Shown piece by piece: positions 15,001 through 18,000 of a stretch of DNA of 31,647 nt. The stretch covers positions 1 to 31,647 of IMG/VR virus record IMGVR_UViG_2681813201_000018; one strand, written 5' to 3'. The DNA is from a virus (Duplodnaviria; Heunggongvirae; Uroviricota; Caudoviricetes). The first letter of the stretch is position 1. Each line of letters begins with the position of its first letter. Position numbers: made by a program.

Positions 15001-18000
15001 CCAAAATCAATGATGTATCGTAATGGTCGAAAGGCAATTTTTTTACCGATGAGGGTAAGTGACATTATGGGAAATGATAAACTGCTGGATGAATTGCGAG
15101 TCAGAGCATCCTGTTAGTATTGGCATTAATTCTGTTATACTACATAACGGGCTGAACACCCATTCTACTGCGCCAGCGGAGAACTACGATGGCGCATATA
15201 CAACTGGTCAAACAAACCTCTTCCGGATTACTTCTCCCGGCGACGCCGGAGAGTTGCGATTTTTTGCATCAAATCAAAATAGGTGAGTGGATACACGCGG
15301 ACTTTAAGCGAGTGCGTAACTACGCGTTCCACAAGCGTTTTTTCAAACTCCTGCAACTGGGATTCGATTACTGGACTCCGGTCGGTGGGGCGATCACGCC
15401 TCGCGAACGAAAACTGGTATCAGGCTTCGTTGATTACCTGTGCGAATCAGTAGGTCGGGAACACACTCCAGCCCTGAGTGATGCCGCAGAGCAATACCTT
15501 AATACAGTTGCGACATGCAGAACCCGGGATACGGCATTGCTAAAGTCGTTTGACGCTTTCCGCGAGTGGGTAACCATTCAGGCCGGATTTTACACCGAGC
15601 ATTTTTATCCGGACGGTAGCCGTGGGCGCAGGGCGAAATCCATCGCGTTTGCGAATATGGACGAAACCGAGTTTCAGCAGGTTTATAAATCTGTGCTGAA
15701 TGTACTGTGGAACTGGATCCTGTTCCGTAAATTTTCCTCTCCGGAACAAGTCGAAAATGTGGCCGCGCAGCTACTGGAGTTTGCGTAATGGTGGATTTAC
15801 GTAAAGCGGCAAAAGGTCAGATGTGTACAGTCAGAATTCCTGGCTACTGCAATCACAATCCCGAAACGTCCGTGCTGGCGCATTACAGGCTGGCGGGGAC
15901 GTGTGGAACAGCGACAAAACCACACGATATGCAGGCGGCAATTGCCTGTAGCTCGTGCCACGATTTAATCGACGGGCGGGTAAAAACCAGCGATTACACC
16001 AAAGAAGAATTGCGCCTGATGCATGCAGAAGGTGTTTTTCGCACACAAGAAATCTGGAGAAAGGAAGGTTATTTATGATTTACCCAACAAATACAGGCAA
16101 AAGCGGGGAACACCTTCGTCTCACCACGCTGGAAAGTGTCTGGATTCAGGGAAAACTGCGCATGTGGGGGCGCTGGTCGTATATTGGCGGCGGTAAGACG
16201 GGAAATATGTTCAACCAGTTGCTGACCTCTAAAAAGCTGACAAAAACGGCAATTAACGAGGCGCTCCGGAGGATGAAAAAAGCAGGTCTGGACAAACCTG
16301 AACTTGAGGCTTTTTTGCGGGATATGATCAACGGTAAGCAAAAAAGCTGGTTGGCGCATTGTACTGATGCAGAGGCGTTATGCATTGATCGTGTGATTAG
16401 TGAAGTGCTGGCAGAACACCCAGGATTGATTTGTATCCTCCGGCAACGATATGAAGGGAGGGGGATGACTAAGCGAAAAATGGCTGAATTGCTGAATGAT
16501 TCACACCCTGAGTGGTGTTACGCCACGTGCCGTAATCGCATAGATGCATGGTTGAAAATGGCAGAGTTTATGCTCTATCTGCCGATGCGTGATGCATTCT
16601 CTTCCGGGGATCTAAAAACCGTCTGTTGACTCAATCTGTTATCCGGGGCTATATTCCTCACGCGCCAGCAAAATCTGGCGTCGGGATTAGCACCCCGGAT
16701 GTTTACGGAGCGATATGAGACGCGCCCGCGTCTTTTTTCATATCGTTTGCACAGTCACATTCGCGATTTATGGCGGGCTGTGTGGGGGAGCCGAAAGGCT
16801 CGCCGGTTTCCGTACCCGGTAGTGCTAACCCTGCACAGTTCGCCACCACGATGATTGGAACATGAATGTATTGACAGTTTCATGTTAGCAGATTACATTC
16901 CTTGGCGGTGCTCAAAACACCTTTTCAGTAGCGGTTACCGCGCCCGACAGACATGCGGTTTTTTTATGTCCAGAATTCTTGGTTTATGACCGGGCGTGCG
17001 GCTAATACAATACCTGCAATGGGAATACGCCCGCCGACTACTGACGGTTTTGAGCGCCCGGTCACCCTCTCAAAAGGGGTAAATCAAAATATTCAGTAGG
17101 ACATATTCATGAACAACGTATCTGTTGAAAACCTCCCATCACTTACACATCAACACCTTCCTGTTATAACAACAGAACTTCTGGCTGAGCTGTACGGAAC
17201 AGAACGCCAGCGTTTGACAAATAATTTCAATAGAAACAAAGAGCGGTTTATTGAAGGAAAGCACTTTTTCCTGATCGAAGGCGATGAATTACGGGAACTG
17301 AAGCACAGAAACTCTTTAAGGGTTTCTGTGAAAATTGCCCGTAACGTTCGCTCCCTCATCCTCTGGACAGAACGCGGAGCAGCCCGTCACGCCAAAATGC
17401 TCGAAACCGATCAGGCGTGGGATGTGTTCGAAAAACTGGAAGACTGCTATTTCAGTCAAAAGGATCCGTCAACGCCAGTTTCATGCCAGAAAAGTTACGA
17501 CACGCGAGTTCTCTGTTATCAGCAAGGCGGTGTCACTGTTTCCACAATTCAGTTGCGGGATGATGATATTGTTATTTCCCTTGAGTCATGGCTGGAACTG
17601 GCGAGAGCCAATGGTTGGTTTGTTGTTCGCAGAGATAAACTGGTGGAAAGGCTGATGCAGCTTTAAAAAGTTCTTGCAATTTTAGCCATAAACTGCTCCA
17701 ATTCCGGTACGCTTCGCAAAGCTGTATCGCGAGGCGAACCAAGCGCATGAACTTTACCAGAACCCGCCATTGAGCGGGTTTTTTATTGCGGAATTAATTA
17801 CGGACCGTTATTATTCTGCTCCCGGCCCTTTAGCTCAGTGGTGAGAGCGAGCGACGCATAATCGCCAGGTCGCTGGTTCGAATCCAGTACAACGCGCCAC
17901 ACTTATTTTCCCTGGCTCGCTTTTGCGGGCCTTTTTTTTAAATGTCTCACAATTCAGGCGGTTGACTGTTGTCTGGTTTGCGGGGAGTTTGTTAAAAGAA

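Follow-up and report, generated by a model that had tools for sequence, protein, structure and literature searches.

The window analysed here is the whole 31,647-nucleotide (nt) stretch of viral DNA in IMG/VR record IMGVR_UViG_2681813201_000018, and within it we examined a degenerate transfer RNA (tRNA) element at positions 17824-17899 of the plus strand (GGCCCTTTAGCTCAGTGGTGAGAGCGAGCGACGCATAATCGCCAGGTCGCTGGTTCGAATCCAGTACAACGCGCCA). The original prediction described this element as a tRNA-Ile2-like body with a replaced 3' acceptor strand and interpreted it either as a decaying phage tRNA or as the footprint of a recombination junction that had used the tRNA 3' end. The described features were confirmed, and both alternatives hold once refined: the element is a decaying phage tRNA, and its 3' acceptor strand was exchanged at a recombination junction. 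With high confidence we read it as a hybrid pseudogene, ileZ'-'argO, which arose by a short-homology deletion in a three-gene tRNA cluster, probably spread among prophages and would be without tRNA function. The hybrid is an ordinary decay product and not an integration scar.

Alignment with the intact clusters of an O78 strain (locus L002) and of phage 933W (locus L003) resolved the element into two parts. The first 56 tRNA positions (17824-17879, plus strand), comprising the 5' acceptor strand, the D arm, the anticodon arm with anticodon CAT (tRNA positions 34-36), the variable loop and the 5' T stem and loop, derive from ileZ; 55 of these 56 nt are identical to the intact ileZ of L002, L003, L006 and L013. 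The likeness to prophage ileZ and to chromosomal ileX of Escherichia coli K-12 was confirmed by alignment, and the label tRNA-Ile2-like was right because ileZ is a close relative of ileX. The sole mismatch is the predicted G at tRNA position 33 in the anticodon loop (17856, plus strand), where every intact ileZ or ileX examined has T. The remaining part (17880-17899, plus strand), which contributes the T loop and 3' T stem, the 3' acceptor strand ACAACGC, the discriminator G and CCA, derives from argO. The replacement of the 3' acceptor strand that had been noticed earlier extends beyond the tRNA itself: over its final 27 nt (17873-17899) the element matches argO of L002 and L003 at every base, and the argO 3' trailer and intrinsic terminator that follow (17900-17939, plus strand; stem 17914-17931, then T8) are collinear with the DNA 3' of argO in L002 and 933W. 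The terminator is annotated in 933W, and a terminator scan of the window lists 17914-17931. Because 55 of the first 56 nt match prophage ileZ and the last 27 nt and trailer match argO, a chance resemblance is excluded.

The two parts meet in the heptamer CTGGTTC (17873-17879, plus strand), which is common to the T arms of ileZ and argO. G49 (17872; A in argO) is the last base specific to ileZ and G57 (17880; A in ileZ) the first specific to argO, which places the crossover within this heptamer. The T arms of the two genes are identical at 15 of 16 positions (CTGGTTC[A/G]AATCCAG) and form direct repeats approximately 175 bp apart. BLAST comparison with complete E. coli genomes and phage records returned two matching pieces of the ileZ-argN-argO cluster, which are adjacent in the window and lie about 175 bp apart in intact relatives. 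By alignment, the DNA missing at the junction measures 174 bp when compared with L002 and 176 bp when compared with 933W, and consists of the ileZ 3' end, the entire argN gene and the 5' three-quarters of argO. As expected for a hybrid pseudogene derived by deletion, both flanks are collinear with an intact array (upstream with L006, downstream with L002), the junction falls in homology and the intervening DNA is absent. The alignment with L002 and L003, whose clusters are intact, also answers one of the checks proposed at the outset: similarity breaks in the T-arm CTGGTTC. Nothing contradicts the hybrid anatomy.

Upstream of the hybrid, a putative tRNA promoter, pT (-35 TTGCGG, 17-nt spacer, -10 TATTAT; 17786-17814, plus strand), aligns with the feature annotated in 933W as 'pT; putative tRNA promoter' (L003 1503-1531, TTGCAG-17-TATTAT). 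A promoter consensus scan returned no site above the tool threshold, pT included, so that pT is recognized through its homology to this 'putative' annotation only. Immediately 5' of the promoter, direct reading of the sequence identified a terminator-like GC-rich hairpin (ACCCGC / GCGGGT, 6-nt loop) with a T run after it (17762-17784, plus strand), to be compared with the 'possible rho-independent terminators upstream of the tRNA genes' annotated in 933W. This hairpin is absent from the list produced by the consensus terminator scan.

In 933W (AF125520), the order of elements is pT promoter, ileZ (AUA), argN, argO, terminator and stx2, and in Shiga toxin (Stx) and lambdoid phages such as 933W and VT2-Sakai the ileZ-argN-argO cluster has the same position as the hybrid, downstream of Q/pR' and upstream of the stx/moron site. 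The hybrid locus shares with the 933W-type cluster the putative pT, the terminator after argO, the 56 nt of ileZ (except for U33G) and the 27 nt of argO. Unlike the intact cluster, it consists of one non-foldable gene in place of three, lacks argN and the deleted DNA, and has G for U33; position, promoter homologue and terminator are present, and a single hybrid gene is left between them. The hybrid body likewise resembles K-12 ileX (b3069; tRNA-Ile2, whose CAU is read as AUA after lysidine modification) in its CAT anticodon and in the layout of its D arm, anticodon loop and T arm, whereas its 3' acceptor strand and discriminator are of the tRNA-Arg type and its position 33 is G. Loss of tRNA genes is known to occur through deletion, or unequal recombination, between neighbours, and the hybrid belongs with the tRNA pseudogenes and hybrid tRNA genes that arise in this way, sharing their short direct-repeat junction, their lost intervening genes and their mismatched halves. 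The parent cluster is well known. In the literature searched we found no prior description of this ileZ'-'argO hybrid: no paper mentioned ileZ, argN and argO together, and a broader search returned no mention of ileZ. Papers on the AgvB and Pas small RNAs (sRNAs) refer only generically to nearby tRNA hits.

To determine how the hybrid is distributed, we searched 5,426 complete E. coli genomes with a 39-nt query spanning the junction, designed so that neither parent gene gives a 28-nt seed. The query matched 187 places, distributed over 163 genomes; in at least one of these genomes (H130, strain M15) the match was to an intact argO variant and not to the hybrid. A 37-nt query centred on G33 matched 186 places in 162 genomes of the same set. 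When IMG/VR was scanned with an exact pattern that left out position 33, 21 contigs matched and all 21 carried G33. Since the totals for the junction and for G33 coincide and 21 of 21 contigs carry G33, the deletion and U33G are strictly linked; U33G was never found in an intact ileZ. The junction together with U33G constitutes a unique marker of one prophage-module lineage. The hybrid was absent from 50,697 deposited phage records and from the GTDB species representatives.

Close inspection of 10 genome loci and the 21 IMG/VR contigs showed that the 76 nt are identical in 28 of these 31 copies; counting the window as well would make 29. The three remaining copies, in strain EL361 and two of the IMG/VR contigs, differ by a single further substitution, G to A, which affects the leading G of the invariant D-loop GG (GTGG to GTAG). 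Two related IMG/VR contigs have a putative -35 of TTTCGG in place of TTGCGG. Secondary mutations are found at L012 (NZ_CP193497.1, at about position 604), L017, L025, L027 and L028. The changes in the D-loop GG and in the -35 are consistent with continuing neutral decay. The identical 76 nt occur in O157:H7, O111:H-, O103:H2, O145 and O121 strains and in one pig isolate. The best match to the window is O157:H7 strain Z1813, with 99.5% identity over 5.5 kb.

The flanks of the hybrid vary. Two main upstream haplotypes were observed, one following ORF6N or DUF1133 and the other, 933W-like, following a DNA methyltransferase gene, together with two single-base variants of the first; downstream there are two sequence haplotypes, one with the AgvB module, in T7 and T8 forms, and one leading to a SASA esterase gene. 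Across the carriers of the hybrid, these flanks combine in at least four ways. The same flank types also adjoin intact clusters (the upstream haplotype in L006 and the downstream haplotype in L002 and L013). In most hybrid loci the immediate downstream neighbour is the moron-site pair of sRNAs, AgvB/EcOnc01 and STnc100-like, of enterohaemorrhagic E. coli (EHEC) prophages (Tree et al. 2014, PMC4104026). The hybrid is separate from these sRNAs. Intact clusters in L002 and L013 also precede that module, and the hybrid of L008 has a different downstream sequence.

On these data we propose the following history. The ancestor was a cluster of ileZ (tRNA-Ile, CAU), argN (tRNA-Arg, UCG) and argO (tRNA-Arg, UCU) situated between the Q/pR' region and the stx/moron site. 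A deletion between the near-identical T arms of ileZ and argO left an ileZ body joined to an unpairable argO 3' acceptor strand; because the direct repeat comprises 7 exact bp (15 of 16 overall), we infer that this took place by replication slippage (slipped-strand misalignment) or by short-homology recombination, possibly between prophage copies. A single origin of the deletion and of U33G, in either order, followed by spread among prophages of EHEC and of E. coli that make Shiga toxin (STEC) through phage transfer and mosaic homologous recombination, is the most economical reading of the sequences. Such mosaic exchange would use the conserved tRNA-derived sequence and its flanks. Conserved tRNA sequence may offer a patch of homology at which mosaic exchange takes place; one and the same 76-nt hybrid is found in several flank combinations across major EHEC serogroups. 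Unequal crossover with a reciprocal argO'-'ileZ duplication is unsupported as a route, since no reciprocal argO'-'ileZ junction was found in the 5,426 genomes, although the reciprocal product could have been lost.

Several points weigh against this reading. The product of the deletion is compatible with either mechanism, and the steps proposed to have led to the hybrid stand less firmly than its anatomy. Either the deletion or U33G may have come first. The annotation pipeline PGAP, which is based on tRNAscan-SE, still gives a tRNA-Met call at the hybrid, without a pseudogene flag. Finally, the near-invariance of the 76 nt in at least 186 copies could mean selection and not recent spread.

This last point would favour a co-opted, non-tRNA role. 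Under such a role, the hybrid would produce a stable tRNA-like RNA with a new function in EHEC prophages, serving as a decoy or sponge (for RNase P, TilS or IleRS), as a structured leader of the late transcript near STnc100/AgvB, or as a processing element of the transcript of the late or sRNA region; selection for this RNA would then explain the spread of the hybrid across O157, O111, O103, O121 and O145 prophages. The 76 nt have indeed stayed nearly constant while both flanks vary, the putative promoter and the terminator have been kept, and the locus is dense in regulatory RNAs (PMC4104026). A recent origin followed by horizontal spread explains the invariance equally well, however, and the variants that do exist strike conserved positions (G to A in the D loop, G to T in the -35). 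Moreover, the 120-nt putative transcript is predicted to fold without unusual stability, with a z of -1.69 and 10 of 200 shuffles folding equally well, and the hybrid's absence from the deposited phage records speaks against a co-opted function. We consider such a role very unlikely. Rfam matches to TarB and Trp_leader at 17850-17942 (E = 0.25-0.7) were rejected, as they lie far under the gathering scores and reflect the terminator hairpin.

The presence of the hybrid with different upstream and downstream haplotypes could also suggest that the same deletion recurred independently, the T-arm repeats acting as a hotspot, the more so as any crossover within CTGGTTC would give an identical junction. 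This explanation founders on the point mutation. U33G accompanies the junction in 186 of 186 places and in all of the IMG/VR contigs, and is never seen in an intact ileZ; because each event would have to gain the same point mutation, we give independent recurrence an even smaller chance, and single origin followed by spread would account for the hybrid more simply.

We then considered whether the hybrid could fold as a tRNA. Its acceptor strands, GGCCCTT and ACAACGC, which the original prediction had described as unable to pair, form only two of seven pairs (G1-C72 and T7-A66), compared to seven of seven in intact ileZ and argO. The ACAACGC strand pairs perfectly with the argO 5' strand GCGTTGT, which is deleted here, and no alternative GCGTTGT partner is present upstream of the hybrid. 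The D, anticodon and T arms with their conserved loops are retained, the T stem being kept through a G49-U65 wobble. Consistent with this, the Rfam tRNA model RF00005 matched only locally, from 17830 to 17889 (model positions 7-64 of 71), at 37.3 bits against a gathering score of 29, so that the match does not include the acceptor stem. The intact tRNAs of a related prophage, in comparison, match the full model, ileZ with 72.5 bits (positions 1-71) and argO with 70.1 bits. ARAGORN, whose use had also been suggested, called no tRNA in the whole window and none in four other hybrid loci (L001, L005, L008 and L012), whereas it calls every intact ileZ, argN and argO in the related loci. The element thus lacks a cloverleaf, in agreement with the view of a decaying phage tRNA.

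Could the hybrid nevertheless be a functional, if unusual, tRNA-Met or tRNA-Ile2 with a non-canonical acceptor stem? Three intact arms that together exceed the Rfam gathering score, a retained putative promoter and terminator, and the unflagged PGAP label in the identical records and in all but one of the matches listed could be taken in this sense. The remaining features speak strongly the other way. The acceptor stem is broken and its 3' strand is borrowed from argO. RNase P, CCA maturation, the synthetases and TilS all require the acceptor helix and the discriminator base, and the pairs C4-G69 and C5-G68 together with discriminator A73 are determinants for TilS and IleRS. These tRNA-Ile2 features, present in ileX and ileZ, are absent from the hybrid, in which C4 stands opposite A69 and C5 opposite A68, with G73 as discriminator. 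U33 is required for the anticodon U-turn; the hybrid has G at this position, where ileZ, ileX and argO have T and intact relatives invariably have U. In addition, ARAGORN rejects five hybrid loci, a D-loop G to A variant exists and the PGAP feature is 5'-truncated. A functional tRNA is, in our assessment, scarcely credible.

The annotation itself deserves comment. RefSeq/PGAP labels the hybrid as a 71-nt 'tRNA-Met' (window 17829-17899) that starts at tRNA position 6. The label is present in the identical records and in every match listed except one, which is an intact tRNA-Arg; examples are NZ_CP028110.1, NC_013008.1 and NC_013364.1. This 'tRNA-Met' is a 5'-truncated annotation artefact and not a normal, fully paired tRNA. 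The misannotation is systematic, as the junction occurs in 162 complete genomes, and it inflates the tRNA-Met counts of those strains.

In regard to the fate of the hybrid pseudogene, a transcript from pT and/or the late promoter pR' is probably made, since the pT homologue and the terminator are retained and late transcription from pR' should cross the region. Without an acceptor helix, this RNA would be a poor substrate for RNase P, for 3' maturation and for any synthetase, and so would neither mature nor be charged. The host would lose nothing, because other ileZ-argN-argO copies are present in other prophages; sequences of this tRNA region occur in up to 12 places per genome. The hybrid provides a clean, datable example of the decay of a rare-codon tRNA cluster in lambdoid and Stx-type prophages, although its biological interest is modest.

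Integration at the 3' ends of tRNAs is frequent among temperate elements and leaves 3' segments that are hybrid or duplicated, and the part replaced here is a tRNA 3' end. Of the suggestion that the element is the footprint of a recombination junction, the junction itself is real (in the T arm at 17873-17879, with about 175 bp deleted), but the use of the tRNA 3' end by an integrase is not borne out. An attachment (att) site scar can be dismissed as having virtually no chance, because the integrase, excisionase and host junction (734-2063, beside the ryeA/sdsR locus) lie 16 kb away at the far end of the prophage and the flanks of the hybrid are collinear with intact clusters, the replacing and downstream DNA being argO with its normal trailer and terminator and the locus differing solely by the internal 174-176 bp deletion, and the junction falling where the T arms of two tRNA genes of one cluster share 7 bp, with no foreign element inserted.

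The hybrid occupies the expected place of a phage tRNA cluster, with a Q-like gene upstream and the STnc100/AgvB pair and a NanS-p-like open reading frame (ORF) downstream. The Q-like antiterminator gene (16075-16629) has a DUF1133 domain and a Phage_antitermQ match of 26.5 bits (cut-off 26). It is directly followed by a P1 immI-like C4/IsrK antisense module (16649-16850), made up of an a1/b1 target and IsrK-like RNA (16649-16738) and a C4 antisense RNA (16766-16850). A match to sRNA-Xcc1 (16988-17071) and an intact ORF with an ORF6N domain (17109-17666) come next; the ORF6N gene is truncated in the relative from O121 RM8352. Downstream of the hybrid are an STnc100-like sRNA (17976-18169, plus strand; 141.8 bits) and AgvB, an anti-GcvB sRNA (18170-18231, minus strand; 96.5 bits), whose terminators stand face to face at about 18137-18195 with approximately 17 nt between the stems. 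In related records PGAP annotates a partial 'hypothetical protein' pseudogene at 17995-18138 on the minus strand, which overlaps STnc100; here an RNA gene has probably been mistaken for an ORF. The convergent STnc100/AgvB pair occupies the position held by stx in Stx phages. The place corresponds to the 'moron' site of Tree et al. 2014 (PMC4104026), found downstream of Q/pR', at which stx is located in Stx phages. The NanS-p-like ORF (18379-20325) carries DUF1737, SASA and DUF6645 domains.

The left end of the window consists of host DNA, with a putative yebY-like ORF at 1-342 and the bidirectional sRNA locus ryeA(sraC)/sdsR(ryeB) at 462-606. A lambdoid prophage is integrated right beside this locus, which is a known insertion hotspot; its integrase and excisionase genes lie at 734-1810 and 1776-2063, both on the minus strand. 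Other RNA features of the prophage are a RalA antitoxin RNA with the RalR ORF on the opposite strand (2168-2346), DicF RNA (7094-7145, minus strand) and a sok/hok-type antitoxin RNA (14305-14476). The prophage has a mosaic structure, with blocks that share 90-98% identity with the prophage of O121 RM8352.

Among the related clusters, L006 (NZ_CP182512.1) holds another decayed tRNA at the argN position (about 1709-1790), with matching acceptor strands (CCGCCAT...ATGGCGG) and a replaced or expanded anticodon-arm region; it is called by neither of the two tools, ARAGORN and PGAP. In the same locus, argO has a compensated T-stem variant (GTGG/CCAC).

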